This document shows, in pieces, positions 7,620 to 40,326 of a stretch of 64,000 bases of DNA. The notes under the pieces were generated by a model, which saw only the letters and a list, made by a program, of their open reading frames with translations, was not told the origin of the DNA and did not search any database. Location: NCBI GenBank assembly GCA_965220215.1, contig OZ244809.1:666580-730579 (forward strand), read 5' to 3'. Made by a program: the position numbers and the translations under genes. Origin of the DNA: Dehalococcoidia bacterium (lineage in GTDB: Bacteria; Chloroflexota; Dehalococcoidia; SHYD01). Position 1 is the first letter of the stretch. Every line of letters starts with the position of its first letter.

Positions 7620-8078
7620 ATGGTGCTCGGCCCTCGAGAAATCCAGGCCATCATCCCCCATCGCTGGCCGTTCCTGCTGGTGGACAAGATCGTTGAGATC
7701 GAACCCGGCAAGCGGGCTGTGGGGATCAAACAGGTCTCCAGTGGCGAGATCTATTTCCAGGGGCATTTCCCCGACCTCCCCATCATGCCCGCGGTGCTCA
7801 CCGTGGAAGCCCTCGCCCAAGTAGGCGCGATAGCGCTCATGAGCCAACCCGAACACAAGGGGAAGGTGGCCCTCTTTGCCGGCATTGACGACTTTCGCTT
7901 CCGCAAGGCCGTCTTCCCCGGCGATACCCTGCGCCTGGAAGTGACGCTGGACCGCATCCGCGGCAACTTTGGCAAAGGCACCGGCCGCGCCACCGTTGAC
8001 GATCAGGTTGCTTCTGAGGGCACTATCATGTTCATGCTGGCGCCGCCGGATGCTGTTGCGCCGCCCCAGGGTTCATAA
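7620..8078 (+). CDS. fabZ: 3-hydroxyacyl-ACP dehydratase
   Basis: [49 protein letters not shown] is the FabZ hotdog motif. The start is at ATG 7620. Confidence 0.85.
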
Positions 8079-8117
8079 GCGGGCAGCCGCTGTTGGCATT
8101 AGTGCAGGCAGTCCGCC

Positions 8118-9287
8118 GTGCTCTTTTTGAAAGACCGTTTAGTTACCTTCTTATGCTCGCGGCTGGCAAATCTCTTCCCCAACACAAAAGCCGTCCCCTC
8201 CCTTCCCGCTAACGCCCGCATCCTGGTCATCAAACCCTGTTGCCTGGGGGACATGCTCCTTGCAACCCCAGTCCTTGCCGTACTGCGAGAGCGCTTCCCT
8301 GCCGCTACCATCACACTCGTCACCAGCCCCTGGGCTAGACCCGCTGCGGAGGGCAACCCCCACCTGAGCAGTATCGAGACGTGGGACTTTCCCGAACGGG
8401 GCGGCATCCGGAGCTTGTGGGGCTACTACCAACTCGCACGCCGCCTGAAAGAGGGACACTTCCACGCCGCGGTGGTGTTGGACCGGTCACCGCTAGTGGC
8501 TATGGTGCCCAGGCTAGCGGGTATCCCTATCAGAGCGGGGTTAGACAGCGGCGGCCGCGGCTTTCCGCACACGCATCGCGTGTCCACCACGCCGCTGCGC
8601 CACGAAGCCTCTCTCTACCTCTCCACTGCGATGATGTTGATCGGACAACCCGCAGACGCGTCACTGCTCTTCAGCCCCAACCCAGAAGACCAGCGCTGGG
8701 CAAATACAGAGCTCGCGGAAAAAGAGCGTTGGATTGCCATCCACCCCGGCGGCGGCGTGAATCCAGGCAGCACTCTCCTAGGAAAGCGCTGGCCTTTGGA
8801 ACAGTACACAGCCCTCGCAGGACAGCTCCTGCTCCAAGGGCATTCCGTCGTGCTGGTAGGCCCGCCTGAGGACTTGGAGGCGGCGGACGTTATCCGGGAG
8901 CAGTCGCTAGCCTTTGTAAACCAGCACCAGCAGCGCACACGCGGGGCGCGCCCCGGCCTGCTGCGTAATTACGCCGGTCAGACCAGCTTCGGCCAGCTGG
9001 CCGCGGTGCTGCAGCGGTGCAGCGCTTTTGTCGGCAACGATACCGGCCCAATGCACCTGGCGGTAGCCGTAAACACGCCGGTGGTGGCGATCTTCGGCCC
9101 TTCCAAGCCGGACGTTTACGGGCCCTATGACAAGCGCAGCCAGGTGATCTATCACGGAGAGGCGTGTCAGGGCTGCGTCTTCCGAGGCGGCCTGGCCGTG
9201 CAGTGCAAGCAGGCATACGCCTGCACCGCGGCGGCCGGCGTTGAAGAGGTGGAGAGCGCGCTCCTCTCCCTGCTCAAGGCATCCTAG
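8118..9287 (+). CDS. Glycosyltransferase family 9 (ADP-heptose:acceptor heptosyltransferase-like)
   Basis: N-terminal ILVIKPCCLGDMLLATPVL and C-terminal GNDTGPMHLAVAVNTPVVAIFGPS are the GT9 hallmarks. Confidence 0.8.
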   Translation: MLFLKDRLVTFLCSRLANLFPNTKAVPSLPANARILVIKPCCLGDMLLATPVLAVLRERFPAATITLVTSPWARPAAEGNPHLSSIETWDFPERGGIRSLWGYYQLARRLKEGHFHAAVVLDRSPLVAMVPRLAGIPIRAGLDSGGRGFPHTHRVSTTPLRHEASLYLSTAMMLIGQPADASLLFSPNPEDQRWANTELAEKERWIAIHPGGGVNPGSTLLGKRWPLEQYTALAGQLLLQGHSVVLVGPPEDLEAADVIREQSLAFVNQHQQRTRGARPGLLRNYAGQTSFGQLAAVLQRCSAFVGNDTGPMHLAVAVNTPVVAIFGPSKPDVYGPYDKRSQVIYHGEACQGCVFRGGLAVQCKQAYACTAAAGVEEVESALLSLLKAS

Positions 9288-9360
9288 AGAGCTGATTGCC
9301 CCTCTACCTGGCCGATGCTAGGATACGGATACGACCTCGTTTCGTAAGAGAAGAGCAGCT

Positions 9361-10518
9361 TTGAAAGAACTCGTGCGCCGCCGTTTGCTCCAAGTTGCCG
9401 GTAGGGCGCTGCGTCACACATCGGCAGCACCCCTAGGCCTACCCCAACGCGTGGTGGTGCTCCGTCCCGACCACCTGGGCGACCTTCTGCTCACCGCGCC
9501 CGCACTCCGCTTACTCCGTACCCGCCTGCCGGAAAGCCATATCTCCCTGCTGGTAGGCCCTTGGAACCGTGAAGCTGCTTCCCATATACCTTATGTCAAC
9601 GATGTGCTTGTCCTGGACTACCCCTGGTTCGACCGCCAGCCCAAAGGCGCGCCCTGGGCGCCCTATTTCCAGCTACGCCAAGAAGCAGAGAGATTGCACC
9701 GCGCTGCCTTCGACCTCGCGCTGATTATGCGCCACGACTTCTGGTGGGGCGCATGGCTGGCAGCAGCCGCGGGTATCCCGCAACGAGCCGGTTACAACCT
9801 CCCAGAGGTTGCGCCCTTCCTTACCACCGCACTCCCCTATGCGTCTGGTCTCCACGAGACAGAGCAGTGCCTACGGCTGGTGCAGGCGGCAGCGCCTAGT
9901 GAAGACAGCGCTATGCGCGCTACGGACGGGCTGGATTTTGTCCCCACGCCTGATGAACAGGCCTTTGCGGAGAAGTGGCTACAGGAACACGGCCTAGCAG
10001 ACGCCATCGTTGCGCTGCACCCCGGCGCGGGCGCACCGGTAAAGCAATGGCCGTCAGATCGCTTCGGTATGCTGGCCCAGCAGCTGGCAACCGACCACCG
10101 CGTTGGCATTGTGGTCACCGGCGACACCCATGAGGCCGCCCTAGTGCAGCAGGTGGTTGCAAGCAGTGAAGAGGCTCACGCCGCTCCTCTGGTGGGCGCG
10201 ACTATCGGACAGGTGGCTGCCGTGCTCCAGCGGTGCGCGCTGGCCGTGGGCGGCGATTCCGGCATTCTTCACCTAGCCGCGGCAGTGGGCACACCAACGG
10301 TGCGGCTCTACGGCTCCGTGGACTCCCAGCGCTTTGGGCCCTGGGGCGCGCCGGAACAGCACCAAATCCTGCGGGCGGAGCTGGCCTGCGTGCCCTGCAA
10401 CCGGCTCGACTTTCCTGCAGAAGAGTTGCCCTACCATCCCTGCCTTCGCAGTATCACCACGGACGCGGTGCTCCAATCCGTGCGAGCGATGCTGTCGCCC
10501 GTAGCGGCTGCTTTGTAG
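9361..10518 (+). CDS. Glycosyltransferase family 9 (heptosyltransferase-like)
   Basis: VVVLRPDHLGDLLLTAPALRLL...GGDSGILHLAAAVGTPTVRLYGS. The ORF track gives a TTG start at 9361. Confidence 0.75.
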   Translation: MKELVRRRLLQVAGRALRHTSAAPLGLPQRVVVLRPDHLGDLLLTAPALRLLRTRLPESHISLLVGPWNREAASHIPYVNDVLVLDYPWFDRQPKGAPWAPYFQLRQEAERLHRAAFDLALIMRHDFWWGAWLAAAAGIPQRAGYNLPEVAPFLTTALPYASGLHETEQCLRLVQAAAPSEDSAMRATDGLDFVPTPDEQAFAEKWLQEHGLADAIVALHPGAGAPVKQWPSDRFGMLAQQLATDHRVGIVVTGDTHEAALVQQVVASSEEAHAAPLVGATIGQVAAVLQRCALAVGGDSGILHLAAAVGTPTVRLYGSVDSQRFGPWGAPEQHQILRAELACVPCNRLDFPAEELPYHPCLRSITTDAVLQSVRAMLSPVAAAL

Positions 10519-19573: not shown

Positions 19574-23368
<3,795 letters not shown>

Positions 23369-23714
23369 AACGAGCCCCTCCTTGGGAGAACTAAAGCAGG
23401 TTGAGCGGGATTCTCAGACACGCAAAAAGCGGGTGTGATCCATTACACTCTGGAAACCAGAAATACGGGGGTTGGGGATTGCCTAATAAGCCACTATACA
23501 TAGTGTGCGTCAAGACATAATAACTTTAACGCTAACACATGTCAACTACTATCTTTCCTTAATTAAAGGGCGGTCTCTGGAATGAACCCCAGAAACTGGG
23601 AAAAAGGCCTCGTGAGGAAGCACATCGGCCACGCGCCTATGCTAAAATTAAGGGGCGCACTTTCTTGCAGACGTCACCGTCCGCACCCTCGCGACTCCTC
23701 ATGAAAGGGAATCC

Positions 23715-25382
23715 ATGGGGGAAGATACCAAAACAGACACCCATCGCGTCGCCACCAGTGGTGACTTAGAGGTCTCCACTTATCTTGAGCTTGCAGAAGC
23801 CAAGGTAGGAGCCAAGCCTCTTCCCGAAGACGGCACCAGACCCAAGCGGGACACCATTGTTGTGCTGGACTTCGGTTCCCAGTACAGCTTGCTCATCGCC
23901 CGCCGCATCCGGGAACTGAACGTCTACTGCGAGATGGTCTCCTACGATACGCCCTGGGAGCAGATAGCGTCGCTCCAGCCCAAGGGATTCGTCCTCTCCG
24001 GCGGTCCCGCCAGCGTCTACGAAGCGAATGCCCCGCTAATCCCGCCCTACATCCTTGAGGCGAACGCGCCCATCCTGGGTATCTGCTACGGCATGCAGCT
24101 CCTTGCGCATCAGCTTGGCGGCAGAGTAGTGCCCGGCGATAAGCGAGAGTACGGCTTTGCAGTCCTCCACAGGGAGACGGACGACAGCCCCATCTTCAGG
24201 GACATGCCTCCCTCTTCTCAAGTATGGATGAGCCACGGCGACCGCATAGACGAGCTGCCTCCCGGCTTCAAGCCTCTGGCCTACACCGATAACTCTCCCA
24301 TCGCTGCCATGGGCGACGACAGAGGCCACGTTGGCATCCAGTTTCACCCGGAGGTGGTTCATACCGTTCACGGCAAGGAGTTGCTGCGGAACTTCCTCTA
24401 CGAAATCTGCGGCTGCACCGGCGATTGGACGGCCGGGAATTTCATCAATGAGAACATCCAGCGCATCCGTGACCAGGTGGGCAACGGCCGCGTGCTCTGT
24501 GCCCTCTCCGGCGGCGTAGACTCTGCGGTAGTAGCCGCCCTCATCGGGCAGGCCATCGGCGATCAGCTTACCTCTATCTTTGTGAATAACGGCCTGCTCC
24601 GCCTCAATGAAGCCGAAAGCACTCTGGAGACACTGCACCGCAACCTTATCTGGAACATCGAGTACGTAGACGCTACCGACCGCTTCTTGGGCGCGCTGAA
24701 CGGAGTCGTTGACCCAGAACAGAAGCGCATGATTGTGGGAGAGACCTTCATCCGGGTCTTTGAGGAGGAGGCCCGCAAGCTAGGCCGCATCGATTTCCTG
24801 GCCCAGGGCACCCTCTACCCCGACGTCATCGAAAGCGCCACCTCCGACCAGAAGAGCACGGCAAAGATTAAGACGCACCACAACGTAGGCGGCCTCCCCA
24901 GCGATATGCAGTTCAGCCTCATCGAGCCGCTGCGCTACCTCTTTAAAGATGAGGTGCGCCAGGTGGGCCTCGCGCTTGGTCTGCCGGAGGAGATGGTCTG
25001 GCGGCAGCCCTTCCCCGGCCCGGGCTTGGCCATCCGCATGATGGGCGCGGTGACGCAGGAGCGGCTGGATTTGCTGCGAGCCGCAGACGCCATCGTGACG
25101 GATGAGATCCTGAAGGCCAGCTACTACAGAGAAACAGCCCAGGTCTTTGCAGTGCTGCCGGGCGTGCGCACCGTTGGCGTCATGGGCGACTTCCGCACGT
25201 ACCGTGAGGTTATTGCGGTACGCGCCATTACCAGCGAGGACTTTATGACGGCCGACTGGGCTCGCCTGCCCTACGACCTGTTGGCCCGTATGAGCAACCG
25301 TATCGTCAATGAGGTGCCGGGGATCAATCGAGTGGTGTACGACATCACCTCCAAACCGCCGGGCACCGTGGAGTGGGAGTGA
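23715..25382 (+). CDS. guaA: GMP synthase (glutamine-hydrolysing)
   Basis: Glutamine-amidotransferase domain ([19 protein letters not shown]), the SGGVDS PP-loop and a C-terminal dimerisation domain. The N-terminus appears about 45 aa longer than usual. Confidence 0.9.
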
Positions 25383-25440
25383 TTACTAAGCGTAAGAATC
25401 TCCTGCGGTTCCTGTTTCTTGAAACTGAGTAAGAATAACT

Positions 25441-26985
25441 ATGGCCCCTAAAACAATAGTCACGATTAACTGTAAAATCCCAGGAAGCCTCTCGGAGTAC
25501 ATCCGTTTTGAGTCCAAAGCTTCTTTATGGGACTGGGATATTATACTGTTCCGCCCAAGCATCACTGACTATATGTCTTGGGACGAAGAATATTACCAGG
25601 GTAAGCCATTACTTAACGATAACCGTTCCTTTCAACTCAAAGACGCAGCAAACCATTGGAGCCGTGAACTCGCAGAGGCCTTCAGGGCGGGGAAGACTAT
25701 CTTTGTTCAGCTATGTCCGCTTCGGGAAATCTACGTAGATTCTGGCAAGCGCGAGTATTCAGGTTCAGGAAAAAGCCGCCAGACAACGCGAATTGTAGAC
25801 TTATTCAACAACTATAAAACCCTTCCGGTGGATATTAAGGTTACCGCTGCAGAAGGCAGGGCAATGCAACTAACCAGAGAAGGGGACTTCCTAGTTGAGT
25901 ACTGGAAAGAATTCGGTCATCTTTCTACTTACAAAGTTCTCCTTCCAGAAGACCTAGGCATACCACTGTGTGTAACGAAAACTGGTTCAAAGCCGGTTGC
26001 TGCTATGCTAGAAAACCCGGAGCACGGTGGGCACATCATACTATTGCCGTACTTAGAGCTGATGGAGGAAGACTTCTACGAGGAGCTTGTGGTAGCAACG
26101 AGTTCAAATGAAGAAGACGAAGAGTATGAAGATGAAGATGATGATGATGATGAGTCGGGCTTAGATGACTTTGAGGAGTCGGATGAGATCGATGAAGAGA
26201 TTGTTTGGACAAAGAAGGGCAACATTTTTGGACATAAACTAATTAGCTCCCTATGTGCCATAGATGATGCCCTTGAGGGTGGGATAAAATCTACACCTAT
26301 CCCCGATTGGGCCACCGACGATGCTTACGTCTTACCAAAAGAAGCTGAGCTCCAACAAGAACTGTTAAAAGTAGAAGTTGCTCAGGGAGAACTAGCTGCT
26401 AAGAATGAAGAGATTGCTGCGAGTATATACGAAGAGCGCTCTCTTAGACGGTTGCTATATGAGAATGGTCATCTACTAGAAAAAGCAGTTCTTAAGGCTT
26501 TACAGCTTTTAGGGTTCCATGCAGAGCAATACCGGGATTCAAAATCAGAGTTTGATGTGGTTTTTCAATGTCCAGAAGGACGCTTCTTGGGTGAGGTTGA
26601 AGGCAAAGATGACAAGCCTATCAATGTCGACAAGATACGTCAGTTGGCGATGAATGTTCATGAAGATTTTAGCAGGGACGACGTTGCAGAGATTGCAAAA
26701 GGGGTGCTTTTTGGAAACGCTTATCGCTTAAGAGCACTCCCAGACCGCGGAGATTATTTTACAGAGAAGTCTACAACTGCGGCTAAGAGCAGCGGAATCG
26801 CTCTTGTCCGTACTCCGGATTTGTTCGATGTTGCGAAGTACCTGTCTAATAGGGTTGACGATGATTTTTCTAAGAAATGCCGTGAAGCGATTCTGTCCGC
26901 AAGCGGAGAAGTAGTGCTATTTCCAGCCATACCAACGGAGGACGTACGGACATTCGTAAGGATGCAGCAATCTGAGACCAAGTAA
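25441..26985 (+). CDS. Hypothetical 514-aa protein, compositionally foreign, with a poly-acidic linker and a C-terminal restriction-endonuclease-like (putative PD-(D/E)xK) motif
   Basis: GC content is far lower than the flanks, about 45% in the first 60 nt by my count. The architecture is an N-terminal domain of unknown fold, an acidic run EEDEEYEDEDDDDDESGLDDFEESDEIDEE, a predicted coiled coil, then EFDVVFQCPEGRFLGEVEGKDDK, which I read as D...E.EGK. I found no match to a named family. Confidence 0.6.
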   Translation: MAPKTIVTINCKIPGSLSEYIRFESKASLWDWDIILFRPSITDYMSWDEEYYQGKPLLNDNRSFQLKDAANHWSRELAEAFRAGKTIFVQLCPLREIYVDSGKREYSGSGKSRQTTRIVDLFNNYKTLPVDIKVTAAEGRAMQLTREGDFLVEYWKEFGHLSTYKVLLPEDLGIPLCVTKTGSKPVAAMLENPEHGGHIILLPYLELMEEDFYEELVVATSSNEEDEEYEDEDDDDDESGLDDFEESDEIDEEIVWTKKGNIFGHKLISSLCAIDDALEGGIKSTPIPDWATDDAYVLPKEAELQQELLKVEVAQGELAAKNEEIAASIYEERSLRRLLYENGHLLEKAVLKALQLLGFHAEQYRDSKSEFDVVFQCPEGRFLGEVEGKDDKPINVDKIRQLAMNVHEDFSRDDVAEIAKGVLFGNAYRLRALPDRGDYFTEKSTTAAKSSGIALVRTPDLFDVAKYLSNRVDDDFSKKCREAILSASGEVVLFPAIPTEDVRTFVRMQQSETK

Positions 26986-27038
26986 GTTAAGTGCGGATAA
27001 CTGTAAACAAACAACATGACAAATGTGGGAGTAGCACT

Positions 27039-27236
27039 ATGGCACTAGCCGATTTCATCTCTGCAGCTATGAGCAAGGCCGTCTACAAGGAGATGCCTGA
27101 CGGGACGTTTGAAGCGACCGTACCGCAGCTCTCCGGAGCGATAGGCCGCGGCAAGACCCGTGAGGAGTGTGAAGCCGAGCTCCTCAAATACGTGGAGCAC
27201 TGGATAAAGCGCACCATGGGGACATTGCACCAGTAG
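27039..27236 (+). CDS. HicB/UPF0150-like small protein (putative antitoxin-like partner)
   Basis: DGTFEATVPQLSGAIGRGKTREECEAELLKYVEHWIK follows the HicB-type pattern DGxYxAxVPxLPGCxxxGxTxEEAxxxxxEAIxxxLE. The start is at ATG 27039. Confidence 0.55.
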   Translation: MALADFISAAMSKAVYKEMPDGTFEATVPQLSGAIGRGKTREECEAELLKYVEHWIKRTMGTLHQ

Positions 27237-27254
27237 CGCGGCCTTAAGCTAGCT

Positions 27255-28628
27255 ATGAATGTCCTTGTCATCGGGTCCGGCGCAAGGGAGCACGCCATCG
27301 CTTGGAAGCTGGCGCAGAGCCCCCGCGTACGGAACATCTACGTAGCGCCCGGCAACGCAGGCACTGCGCTCGTTGCCTGCAACATGCCCATAAAGGAGAG
27401 CGATACTGATGGACTGCTGCGCGCCGCTCGGGACAATGGCGTCGATCTCACGATAGTGGGCCCGGAAGTGCCGCTGGCGGAGGGTATTGTGGACACCTTC
27501 CAGGAGCAGCGCATGCCAATCTTCGGCCCCACGCGGAACGCGGCCCGCATCGAGTCCAGCAAATCCTTCGCTAAAGACCTCATGCAACGCCACGGCGTCC
27601 CCTGCGCCCAGAGCCAGACCTTCGACCGGATGGACGCGGCAATGGCCTACATTGCGGAGATGGGACTGCCCATCGTCATCAAGGCAGACGGACTGGCAGC
27701 GGGCAAGGGGGTTTCTATCTGCTTCACCCATGAAGAAGCCACCACAGCCCTTGAAGATGCCCTGGTTCGCCGCACCTTTGGCATGGCCGGCGCAAAGGTC
27801 GTGGTTGAGGAGTACCTGGAAGGCCCGGAGGCCAGCTTGCTTGCCTTCTGCGACGGCAAGACGGTGCTCCCTATGACTCCCGCCGCGGACTACAAGCGCG
27901 CCTATGACTACGACCAGGGTCCCAACACCGGCGGCATGGGCGCATATAGCCCACCACCCTACTTTGGTCAGGCACAGGTGGACGAAGCCAAACGCACCAT
28001 CCTTGAACCGATAGTGCACGCCCTGGCAGAGGAGGGCTCGCCCTTTGTGGGGGTGCTCTTTGCCGGTCTAATGGTCACCTCCAGAGGGCTGCGGGTGTTG
28101 GAGTTCAACTGCCGTTTTGGAGACCCGGAGAGCCAAGTAGTGCTCCCTAGGCTGAAGACAGACTTACTTAGTGTGGTGGAGGCATGCCTGCAAGGGCGGC
28201 TGGACACCATCACGTTGGAGTGGGACTCCCAGGCCAGCGTGGGCGTGGTGGTTGCCTCCGAGGGGTACCCCCGCGAGTATAAAACGGGCTACGGTATCAC
28301 CGGTCTTGATCAGTTGGCGGACGGCATTCGAGTGTTTCACAGCGGCACCGCCGCCCGCTCCATGCAGAATCGCGACGGCGGCCCGAACCTCCCCGGCGGC
28401 TCGGTGGAAGAGCGGCTGGGTGGCAATATCGTTACCGCGGGTGGGCGCGTGCTCACGGTGGTCGCGATGGGCCAGACGCTGGAAGAGATACGGGAGCGCG
28501 TCTACCAGAACGTCGATCTCATCCGCTTCGAGGGCGCCTTCTCTCGCCGCGACATCGGCATTCCGTCCGGCAGCGCCCCCAGCGCTCCCCCAATAGCAGT
28601 GTCATCCCCAGAACAACCGGCCACTTAG
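27255..28628 (+). CDS. purD: Phosphoribosylamine--glycine ligase
   Basis: MNVLVIGSGAREHAIAWKLAQSPRV... is the PurD ATP-grasp protein. Confidence 0.9.
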   Translation: MNVLVIGSGAREHAIAWKLAQSPRVRNIYVAPGNAGTALVACNMPIKESDTDGLLRAARDNGVDLTIVGPEVPLAEGIVDTFQEQRMPIFGPTRNAARIESSKSFAKDLMQRHGVPCAQSQTFDRMDAAMAYIAEMGLPIVIKADGLAAGKGVSICFTHEEATTALEDALVRRTFGMAGAKVVVEEYLEGPEASLLAFCDGKTVLPMTPAADYKRAYDYDQGPNTGGMGAYSPPPYFGQAQVDEAKRTILEPIVHALAEEGSPFVGVLFAGLMVTSRGLRVLEFNCRFGDPESQVVLPRLKTDLLSVVEACLQGRLDTITLEWDSQASVGVVVASEGYPREYKTGYGITGLDQLADGIRVFHSGTAARSMQNRDGGPNLPGGSVEERLGGNIVTAGGRVLTVVAMGQTLEEIRERVYQNVDLIRFEGAFSRRDIGIPSGSAPSAPPIAVSSPEQPAT

Positions 28629-29523: not shown

Positions 29524-29552
29524 TCTCACATAGAAGATACTGGAGCGTCTAA

Positions 29553-30862: not shown

Positions 30863-30948
30863 GTCATTCAGAGCCTGCCTACCGCAGGCAGGCAAAGCTA
30901 AGAATCCAATTTAGCCTGGATTTTCTTAGGCGCCTTCCTCTGAATGAC
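30863..30948. repeat. REP/MITE-like nested palindromic element, copy A
   Basis: GTCATTCAGAGC...CTAAGAATCC...GGATTTTCTTAGG...CTCTGAATGAC. The ATG of the next ORF lies inside the right arm. Confidence 0.65.
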
Positions 30949-40251: not shown

Positions 40252-40326
40252 AGTGCTGTAGCACAGCCGGGAGAGCATTTGTCTGGCAGACAAGGGTCAG
40301 GGATTCGAGTCCCATCTGCTCCACCA
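40252..40326 (+). pseudogene. Degenerate tRNA-Ala-like remnant (duplicate of the tRNA at 41624-41699 including about 45 bp of upstream sequence)
   Basis: About 85% identical to the intact tRNA-Ala. It has acceptor and D-stem mismatches (AGUG versus GGGG at the 5' end, A:A in the D stem) and a 1-nt deletion. The shared upstream block GTACATTGCCCGCCAC[A/C]GCGC[A/G]GCTTTG.. occurs at 40206 and 41578. Confidence 0.6.

Follow-up and report, generated by a model that had tools for sequence, protein, structure and literature searches.

A single-gene insertion between guaA and purD of a Dehalococcoidia bacterium encodes a candidate stand-alone nuclease

The interval between guaA and purD in this Dehalococcoidia bacterium holds two co-oriented genes and a tract of low GC content, which raises the question of whether both genes arrived together as one functional module, and of what the larger one does. 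The window analysed here is the whole 64,000-nucleotide stretch of DNA around this locus, and all coordinates refer to it. On its plus strand, guaA (GMP synthase; 23715..25382) is followed by gene 1 (514 aa; 25441..26985), gene 2 (65 aa; 27039..27236) and purD (27255..28628), with successive spacers of 58, 53 and 18 nt in the ORF list. The left flank is identified by its open reading frame, by Pfam GATase/GMP_synt_C domains on orthologues and by the junction sequences, and the right flank by its open reading frame and GARS domains on orthologues. Public assemblies have identical gene calls for all four genes, in agreement with the layout given by an earlier sequence-only reading. That reading took the whole 1.87 kb between guaA and purD to be foreign, and its two genes to be a toxin–antitoxin, abortive-infection or defence module.

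The inserted segment and its resident neighbour

The GC content falls to 0.44–0.47 across positions 25400–27050, compared with 0.58–0.66 in the flanks, but the two genes do not share this shift. Gene 1 has a GC content of 0.455 and a GC3 of 0.437, whereas gene 2 has values of 0.576 and 0.727. Since the GC3 of gene 2 resembles that of guaA (0.775), purD (0.758) and rpoB (0.704), the foreign segment comprises gene 1 only, and the foreign origin proposed for the whole interval holds for gene 1 and not for gene 2.

Comparison with relatives locates the ends of the foreign segment. In eight contigs of close Dehalococcoidia-like relatives (L090–L093, L103, L104, L106 and L107) we found the empty-site arrangement that the sequence-only reading had proposed to look for, in which guaA is followed after 4 nt by the UPF0150 gene and then purD, without gene 1; the gene 2 protein is identical to that of the window in four of them. 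Within one species-level lineage, the site is thus filled in 2 contigs and empty in 8. The empty site contains one copy of the 8-bp sequence GTGGGAGT, whereas the filled site contains two, exactly at the junctions (25373..25380 and 27025..27032), as seen by junction alignment, by blastn breakpoints, which overlap by 8 bp in L090–L093, and by a repeat scan, which recovers the pair with a spacing of 1652 (family D16). The inserted segment (25381..27032, plus strand) is 1,652 bp long, consisting of 1,644 bp of foreign DNA and the second repeat copy, and holds one gene, as opposed to a two-gene cassette. A recent horizontal insertion into the guaA–purD neighbourhood, as first proposed from composition, is therefore supported by the empty-site contigs and by the repeat at the breakpoints.

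The segment entered seamlessly, with guaA on one side and an orphan UPF0150 gene that was already there on the other. The last codons of guaA are preserved, with a TGA stop now supplied by the insert in place of the TAG of the empty site, and the right repeat copy restores the native GGGAG ribosome-binding context upstream of gene 2. The locus is thus a clean case of one gene entering a housekeeping operon seamlessly. There are no terminal inverted repeats at the insert ends and no recombinase within the insert. Target-site duplication and microhomology-mediated insertion explain the 8-bp repeat equally well. We considered an integron-cassette origin and disfavour it, as the 3′ flank leaves too little length for a typical attC and there is no integrase in the vicinity. 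Predictions above shuffled background gave neither a promoter nor a terminator belonging to gene 1, and its transcription therefore probably continues from the host operon.

The UPF0150/HicB-like fold assigned to gene 2 from sequence is borne out. The protein matches Pfam PF21748 (UPF0150-like, E 1.6e-14), and its AlphaFold2 model, in which the whole 65-aa chain forms an alpha-beta-beta-beta-alpha core, superposes on the UPF0150 protein TTHA0281 with a TM-score of 0.77. The likeness to TTHA0281 and to HicAB systems is confined to this N-terminal HicB fold, as the protein has no C-terminal DNA-binding domain (RHH or HTH) and, as the sequence-only reading had recognized, no HicA partner: a HicA toxin gene (PF07927) is absent beside gene 2 in the window and in the empty-site genomes, where there is no room for one, because gene 2 begins 4 nt after guaA at empty sites and ends 18 nt before purD. 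Gene 2 also departs from HicAB in its chromosomal location, its host composition and its retention between guaA and purD whether or not gene 1 is present. Synteny is not kept in a more distant relative, whose RpoB is 74% identical. As seen among close relatives, gene 2 is a native resident of the guaA–purD gap and lies outside the insert. Conservation of the pair at this position, which the sequence-only reading would have taken as a sign of housekeeping, thus applies to gene 2 and not to gene 1.

These observations bear directly on the idea that the two genes are one acquired toxin–antitoxin, abortive-infection or defence module, with gene 1 as effector and gene 2 as HicB-like antitoxin or regulator. 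The genes are adjacent and co-oriented with 53 nt between them, the fold of gene 2 is genuine, and a solo nuclease might seem in need of a neutralizer. However, the insertion breakpoints leave gene 2 outside, its composition is that of the host, it persists in eight contigs without gene 1, and it lacks both the DNA-binding domain and the HicA partner. Nor does the pairing recur elsewhere: a UPF0150 gene was found beside none of about 87 other loci with gene 1 homologues by tblastn of gene 2, and among none of 159 immediate neighbours of the homologues by Pfam. We regard the two-gene module as extremely improbable, and its absence removes a HicB–nuclease pairing that would have been a false lead.

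Domains and putative active site of the gene 1 protein

The AlphaFold2 model of the gene 1 protein (mean pLDDT 87.5) consists of two domains and a long helix between them. The N-terminal alpha/beta domain (approximately residues 1–281; 25441..26283, plus strand) carries a GATase1 alpha/beta fold by structure comparison, of the class-I glutamine-amidotransferase-like kind (ThuA/IFT52-N/GH42M-like). In an alignment of 250 family members, 34–59% identical to gene 1, this domain has no invariant or near-invariant Cys that could serve as the nucleophile of the GATase Cys-His-Glu triad; the sole conserved Cys of the family, C480, lies within the nuclease domain. From the model and this alignment, the N-domain is predicted to be a catalytically dead class-I glutamine-amidotransferase-like domain. 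Descent from the GATase domain of the adjacent guaA was considered and rejected, as the domain occurs throughout the family, across phyla, and is not similar to guaA in sequence. Inside the N-domain, residues 219–251 (26095..26193, plus strand) form an acidic disordered loop with pLDDT below 50. The loop has a median length of 8 aa across the alignment and reaches 20 aa or more in 30 of the 250 members, and is a lineage-specific expansion, not a hallmark of the family.

Between the domains, DSSP assigns a 41-residue helix on the model (residues 299–339; 26335..26457, plus strand). It is the least conserved segment of the protein, with a mean pairwise identity of 0.29, and is probably a coiled-coil or dimerization element joining both domains.

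The C-terminal domain (residues 341–500; 26461..26940, plus strand) shows an alpha-beta-beta-beta-alpha-beta restriction-endonuclease-like core in the model and is FokI/AF1548-like by structure comparison. It is the most conserved part of the protein (pairwise identity 0.54 versus 0.38). Its candidate active-site residues are E347, D372, E385, E387, K389, K398 and Q401; in the 250 members, D372, E385, K398 and Q401 are 100% conserved, E347 and E387 99%, and G388 99–100%. The conserved acidic residues and Lys fit the PD-(D/E)xK pattern, distributed over the first helix and strands beta2 and beta3. The canonical Lys of (D/E)xK falls at position 389, where 84% of members have K and 16% have R; because of this substitution the exact catalytic set is uncertain, and the role of each single residue can be assigned only provisionally from sequence. 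The acidic run, the long helical segment and the conserved EFD...GEVEGK block described earlier are all present, and the model together with the conserved residues supports the PD-(D/E)xK nuclease fold that had been proposed for the C terminus.

Could the protein instead be a non-catalytic DNA-binding or scaffold protein with a nuclease fold, or the window copy a functionless, decaying passenger? The variability at position 389 and the lack of a predicted promoter would be compatible with either. Against this, the open reading frame is intact and its homologues align to it over the full length, and acidic and basic residues that are 99–100% invariant at 34–59% overall identity have the pattern expected of a maintained active site. 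We therefore consider a non-catalytic or decaying protein very unlikely and treat gene 1 as encoding a putative metal-dependent nuclease.

Spread, mobility and neighbours of the gene 1 family

The sequence-only reading found no recognizable family for gene 1, and database searches agree: hmmscan against Pfam, NCBIfam, PADLOC and PHROGs gave no matches, PDB sequences yielded none with phmmer or with a profile hmmsearch, PADLOC-DB 2.0.0 contained no family at E ≤ 1, and a Shedu-type check with Pfam DUF4263 was negative. Invisible to these resources, the family is nonetheless about 2,900 clusters wide (2,938 clusters at 50% identity). More than 683 homologues were aligned full-length to gene 1, and the best 150 family representatives all share its architecture. 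The family occurs in at least 117 species from many bacterial phyla and in two methanogens (archaea).

Its members behave as accessory genes. On average, the family gene lies 7.8 GC points below its own flanks (78 loci, Wilcoxon p = 1e-11). Homologues, among them WP_049126869.1 of Enterobacter hormaechei, are carried on seven Enterobacter IncF plasmids, where they adjoin IS elements, and members often travel on elements that have their own integrases or transposases. A tblastn search of 50,697 GenBank phage genomes found no member, blastn of 5,426 E. coli genomes found no copy of the plasmid homologue, and only 8 of 2.9 million IMG/VR contigs contain the family. Gene 1 is a horizontally acquired accessory gene with a sporadic, mobile distribution.

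A distribution of this kind might be produced by the nuclease itself, if gene 1 encoded a selfish mobility enzyme, homing-endonuclease-like or an unusual PD-(D/E)xK transposase, with no part in defence. The insert is a single gene flanked by an 8-bp direct repeat and has no other mobility gene, it sits in an intergenic gap with the conserved operon undisrupted, and the sporadic, AT-rich occurrence across phyla would suit such an element. However, the insert ends lack terminal inverted repeats, gene 1 has no similarity to a transposase family in Pfam or NCBIfam, and the members often ride elements that supply their own integrases or transposases. The 80 genomic loci come from 80 different assemblies and thus give no sign of multicopy expansion, and the insertion sites and neighbours are heterogeneous, which speaks against homing-type site specificity. 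Selfish mobility is unlikely on this evidence.

An accessory nuclease for host DNA repair or recombination, of the NucS/EndoMS or Hjc type, is slightly less probable again. NucS/EndoMS and Hjc resolvases are among the structural neighbours, and many neighbours of the homologues are housekeeping genes, but the closest folds are cleavage domains of restriction enzymes, not resolvases. Presence that varies within a species-level lineage, foreign composition in most hosts and carriage on plasmids and prophages also argue against a function in host DNA metabolism.

We found no partner that accompanies the family. No Pfam family recurs among the 159 immediate or the 147 second and third neighbours, and the largest neighbour cluster in an all-against-all blastp of 459 flanking ORFs has 4 members, in ORFs called by a naive longest-ORF greedy procedure that may miss very small partners. 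At the window itself the scope for a missed partner is limited, because the insert leaves only 58 nt upstream and ~47 nt downstream of gene 1. A cognate DNA methyltransferase is likewise absent from the insert and not recurrent among the neighbours of homologues, only a few of which adjoin methyltransferases. Gene 1 is thus a solo gene without a conserved partner.

Candidate defence role and relation to known systems

Several homologues lie in settings associated with anti-phage defence. One is found in a P2-like prophage between portal gpQ and replication gpA, an interval that in P2-like prophages is a validated anti-phage hotspot (PMC9122126). Others adjoin the integrase of a Toprim-primase element, a CI repressor, or HepT/MNT and ParE genes, and one lies within an island with TIR, DUF1156/DUF499, AAA_15/21 and MNT genes. 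Of 150 genes adjacent to homologues, at least ~14 have a PADLOC match (E ≤ 1e-10), a raw, background-uncorrected rate of ~9%. The association with defence is moderate, not strong, because gene 1 itself matches no PADLOC model and the second and third neighbours are mostly ordinary. The absence of the family from the GenBank phage genomes and from E. coli, and its rarity in IMG/VR, also count against a defence role. Such a role is plausible for gene 1 on its own, and we favour, with somewhat better than even confidence, the view that it encodes a horizontally acquired stand-alone nuclease directed against phages or other mobile elements. If so, one compact gene would make up the whole system, with a sensor of a new kind, and the homologues on Enterobacter IncF plasmids would offer a tractable representative.

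In such a stand-alone defence nuclease, the FokI/AF1548-type PD-(D/E)xK domain, with its intact and invariant putative active site, would cut DNA, and the long helix linking the domains would probably bring two cleavage domains together, a pairing that FokI-type domains require. The N-domain would supply recognition of a target or trigger, or oligomerization. Since the family lacks a conserved methylase, antitoxin or other partner alongside, self-protection would have to be built into the protein, either as specificity for a non-self DNA feature, similar to Type IV enzymes and END nucleases, or as autoinhibition until a phage cue appears.

The closest functional analogy, and in our view the best, is with the END nucleases, in which a solo Type IIS-like (FokI-type) endonuclease is fused to an inactive EndoIII sensor, with no methylase (PMC12191111). 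Similar to these, gene 1 is a mobile, accessory single gene without a methyltransferase, and combines a FokI-type domain with what appears to be a dead enzyme-derived domain. The N-domain is of the class-I glutamine-amidotransferase-like type, however, as opposed to iEndoIII, and no sequence relationship between gene 1 and END nucleases was detected.

Other systems resemble gene 1 in part. FokI and other Type IIS enzymes (BspD6I, HindIII) show no sequence-level similarity to it and, unlike them, gene 1 has no cognate methyltransferase in the window or conserved elsewhere. Its N-domain lacks the helix-turn-helix or winged-helix character of a recognition domain of the D1–D3 type; the structural matches are GATase1, ThuA and IFT52-N folds, not DNA-binding folds. 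With Type IV enzymes gene 1 shares the status of a stand-alone nuclease gene without a methylase, but it differs from AF1548, Mrr-like and Type IV proteins (MspJI, AspBHI) in having no Pfam Mrr_cat match, and searches of Pfam, NCBIfam and PADLOC and a structure search with the N-domain revealed no modified-base reader (SRA, EVE/PUA, iEndoIII or GmrSD DUF262). The CARF–nuclease proteins Card1, Can2 and Cdn1 (VC1899) have an alpha/beta ligand-sensor domain ahead of a PD-(D/E)xK nuclease on a single polypeptide, a layout similar to that of gene 1, and the nuclease domains match; the N-domain of gene 1 is GATase1-like, not CARF, and gene 1 has no CRISPR or CBASS neighbourhood to supply a signal. 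In the literature, we found no specific report of a defence architecture that joins a GATase-like domain to a nuclease.

The pairing of a FokI-type cleavage domain with an unusual, apparently dead enzyme domain leads us to a more specific proposal, which we hold only tentatively. The gene 1 family may be an undescribed, widespread single-protein immune nuclease in which the dead GATase-like domain acts as a sensor and licenses a FokI-type domain paired through the coiled coil. The cue for the N-domain could be a ligand of phage origin, a sugar-type hypermodification on the DNA or a phage protein. A sensor role is conjectural, because no known domain for binding DNA or modified bases, or for sensing nucleotides, matches the N-domain. 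If true, the proposal would extend the sensor-plus-nuclease logic seen in Type IV, END and Card1-like effectors by a new class of sensor.

The guaA–purD gap is not the only one of its kind. In relatives of the host, nearby gaps of this pur cluster hold further solo nuclease or restriction–modification genes, which suggests that the intergenic gaps of this cluster serve as small defence hotspots in this small-genome Chloroflexota lineage.

An insertion in the guaA–purD interval

Between guaA (23715–25382, forward strand) and purD (27255–28628, forward strand), the ORF map bears out the layout given in the sequence-only reading: a 514-aa ORF (25441–26985, forward strand; gene 1) is followed by a 65-aa ORF (27039–27236, forward strand; gene 2), with successive spacers of 58, 53 and 18 nt. 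The same reading took both genes for one AT-rich, foreign cassette. GC does drop to 0.44–0.47 over approximately 25400–27050, versus 0.58–0.66 on either side (300-nt sliding window), but the foreign composition is that of gene 1 only (GC 0.455, GC3 0.437). Gene 2 (GC 0.576, GC3 0.727) is indistinguishable in GC3 from the host genes guaA (0.775), purD (0.758), purE (0.781) and rpoB (0.704). A second, smaller dip (0.48–0.49) at 23300–23750 coincides with the divergent rpoB–guaA intergenic region and probably reflects a promoter there, not foreign DNA. The mechanical rpoB ORF (19574–23368, reverse strand) spans 1,264 aa, versus 1,233 aa called for orthologues in related genomes, and the first ATG probably precedes the true start by ~31 codons.

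Comparison with related genomes of 1.7–2.4 Mb, whose flanks are 93–96% identical to the window in DNA and whose gene 2 copies share 95–100% protein identity, shows that gene 2 is a native resident of the gap. In contigs L090–L093 the order is rpoC-rpoB-guaA, 4 nt, the UPF0150 gene and purD-purE, with gene 1 absent; L103, L104, L106 and L107 have the same empty configuration and encode a gene 2 product with 100% identity to that of the window. Among the related contigs compared, gene 1 is carried only by the window genome and by one low-coverage contig (L089/L105), where it is 90% identical and split by frameshifts. The host lineage belongs to the Chloroflexota and is Dehalococcoidia-like, as every named RpoB relative at 65–73% identity bears these labels.

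The breakpoints fall at 25380 and 27025 by blastn, with an 8-bp overlap between the two matches in the empty-site genomes, and a repeat finder independently returned the direct repeat GTGGGAGT at 25373–25380 and 27025–27032, 1,652 bp apart, which is also directly visible in the junction alignment. The insert is therefore 25381–27032, a single gene with 58 nt on its 5′ side and ~47 nt on its 3′ side. It is seamless with respect to both neighbours: the guaA C terminus (VEWE) is kept, with the TAG stop of the empty site replaced by a TGA from the insert, and the second copy of the octamer gives gene 2 back its upstream GGGAG context. Gene 1 is thus almost certainly a solo acquired gene. No promoter or terminator prediction within the insert rose above shuffled expectation, so gene 1 is probably transcribed together with the host operon.

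A target-site duplication and a microhomology-mediated insertion would account equally well for the 8-bp repeat. Together with the solo insert, the repeat would suit a selfish homing or transposase-like element, but this reading is unlikely, as no terminal inverted repeats were found at the insert ends, the family is single-copy, its insertion sites are heterogeneous and its members are carried on other elements. The insert also contains no recombinase.

In other strains of the host lineage, neighbouring gaps of the pur cluster are occupied by other AT-rich solo genes. Depending on the genome, the gap ahead of purB encodes a PLDc_2 protein (285 aa, GC3 0.36), an ORF of 102 aa, or an N6/N4 methylase together with an MTaX1/HNH protein; the gap behind purB encodes either a NucS_C-like protein (GC3 0.44, 357 aa) or one with DUF7002 (L090:8587-9795; L091:9929-11084; L092:8762-9070; L104:6478-8198; L103:7901-8198). 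In the window, neither gap (29524–29552 and 30864–30937) has such a gene. The pur cluster of this lineage seems to provide small hotspots for defence or nuclease genes. Further along, a weak Rfam tRNA match at 40252–40323 (forward strand; 31.4 bits, gathering score 29), with no ARAGORN call, may represent a tRNA of degenerate or unusual form.

A widespread gene family and its neighbours

A word-indexed search returned more than 683 homologues of gene 1, which align over their full length at 40–58% identity and are all unnamed and without Pfam domains. An exhaustive profile search gave 2,938 clusters (50% identity) at E ≤ 1e-3 and 773 at E ≤ 1e-30, the top 150 of which all share an architecture of ~460–500 aa. 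Scanning one genome per species places relatives in at least 117 species, with hosts including Planctomycetota, Acidobacteriota, Patescibacteria, Pseudomonadota, Cyanobacteria, Campylobacterota and two methanogenic archaea.

The gene is a stand-alone one across this family. Gene 2 had no tblastn match at the homologue loci; all-against-all blastp of 459 flanking ORFs gave a largest cluster of four; and Pfam searches of 81 downstream, 78 upstream and 147 second or third neighbours found no UPF0150 and no recurrent family. For five homologues with precomputed Pfam gene calls, the neighbours differ each time. The HicB/UPF0150 fold proposed for gene 2 holds, because gene 2 matches PF21748 (UPF0150-like, E 1.6e-14) and its AlphaFold2 model (alpha-beta-beta-beta-alpha; pLDDT 85.8) can be superposed on TTHA0281 (TM 0.77, probability 1.0) and 2yzt, both stand-alone UPF0150 proteins. 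With no HicA and no co-inheritance, the two genes do not form a HicAB module. The sequence-only reading is thus confirmed in part: its nuclease and HicB-fold calls stand, and its two-gene toxin–antitoxin or abortive-infection module is now extremely improbable, given a native gene 2, a gene 1 inserted alone and no UPF0150 beside the homologues.

Most homologues are AT-richer than their surroundings (mean −0.078 GC, Wilcoxon p = 1e-11, 78 loci), by more than 0.03 at 59 of the 78. A homologue is present on seven IncF plasmids of clinical Enterobacter, of which six are typed as conjugative and one as non-mobilizable; transposases (IS3 and IS21) and a GNAT/DUF1778 toxin–antitoxin pair flank it. 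The family is absent from 50,697 GenBank phages and from E. coli; eight IMG/VR contigs carry a homologue. In one P2-like prophage (L102), it lies between the portal gene, which follows the gpP terminase, and replication gene A; the gpQ–gpA interval of such prophages is an experimentally demonstrated anti-phage hotspot (PMC9122126). On other viral or prophage contigs, it follows the integrase of a Toprim-primase element (L095) or adjoins a CI repressor (L098) or a KAP NTPase (L099). On the P2-like contig L101, it comes after tail gene D, with the gene for an adenine methyltransferase of the D12 class (Dam-type) directly upstream (L101:6802–7719 and 8001–9410), the sole restriction–modification-like pairing seen and not a recurrent one. 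One chromosomal homologue sits in an island with TIR, DUF1156/DUF499, AAA_15/21, MNT and DUF433/DUF5615 genes, and another in a HepT/MNT and ParE neighbourhood.

PADLOC models matched (E ≤ 1e-10) at least ~14 of 150 real-sized adjacent genes at 68 loci: five AriA/PtuA/Old-type ATPases, three Type I methylases, two specificity subunits, two Type II methylases and two RT-protease genes. Relative to the published estimate that defence accounts for ~1.5% of bacterial genes (PMC13434031), this would be a moderate enrichment. Carriage on mobile elements and presence that varies between strains make an accessory repair nuclease rather improbable.

Predicted protein and proposed role

With 32 diverse sequences as input, AlphaFold2 gave a confident model of the gene 1 product (mean pLDDT 87.5), in which a 41-residue helix (299–339) joins a glutamine-amidotransferase (GATase1)-like N-terminal domain to a FokI/AF1548-like C-terminal domain. 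Predicted fold and motif place the latter in the PD-(D/E)xK superfamily, upholding the earlier nuclease call, and an active nuclease is very likely; with its putative catalytic residues invariant, an inactive or decaying protein is quite improbable. The acidic run is a disordered loop within the N-domain and a lineage-specific expansion (family median 8 aa; 20 aa or more in 30 of 250 members). Conservation peaks in the nuclease domain (mean pairwise identity 0.54; conservation of 90% or more in 47 of 160 columns), with faster divergence in the N-domain (0.38) and helix (0.29), a pattern that would fit a conserved effector with a faster-evolving recognition or assembly module. The protein is not a GATase enzyme, as it lacks the triad, nor a Type IIS restriction–modification system, having no methylase and no DNA-recognition domain, and it matches no PADLOC system.

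The reading with most support is that gene 1 encodes a single-chain nuclease, working alone, that takes part in conflicts with phages or other mobile DNA, and we lean towards a role in defence. Cleavage would fall to the C-domain. FokI-type cleavage domains must pair, and two of them may do so via the helix and perhaps also the N-domain, with the dead GATase1-like domain recognizing the target or trigger. As no methylase or antitoxin is conserved alongside gene 1, self-protection would have to be intrinsic, through specificity for a non-self DNA feature or autoinhibition; a Type IV-like specificity in particular is less likely than not. In function, the nearest precedent is that of the END nucleases (PMC12191111), in which a solo FokI-type nuclease carries an inactive EndoIII sensor and, with no methylase alongside, restricts hypermodified phages. 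Gene 1 is left as a candidate defence nuclease, so far uncharacterised: a single, widespread gene whose product combines its domains in an unusual way. For experiments, the family has a convenient representative in the 36.7%-identical plasmid homologue WP_049126869.1 (L094:9001-10341, Enterobacter hormaechei IncF plasmid NZ_CP031569.1), annotated 'hypothetical protein'.
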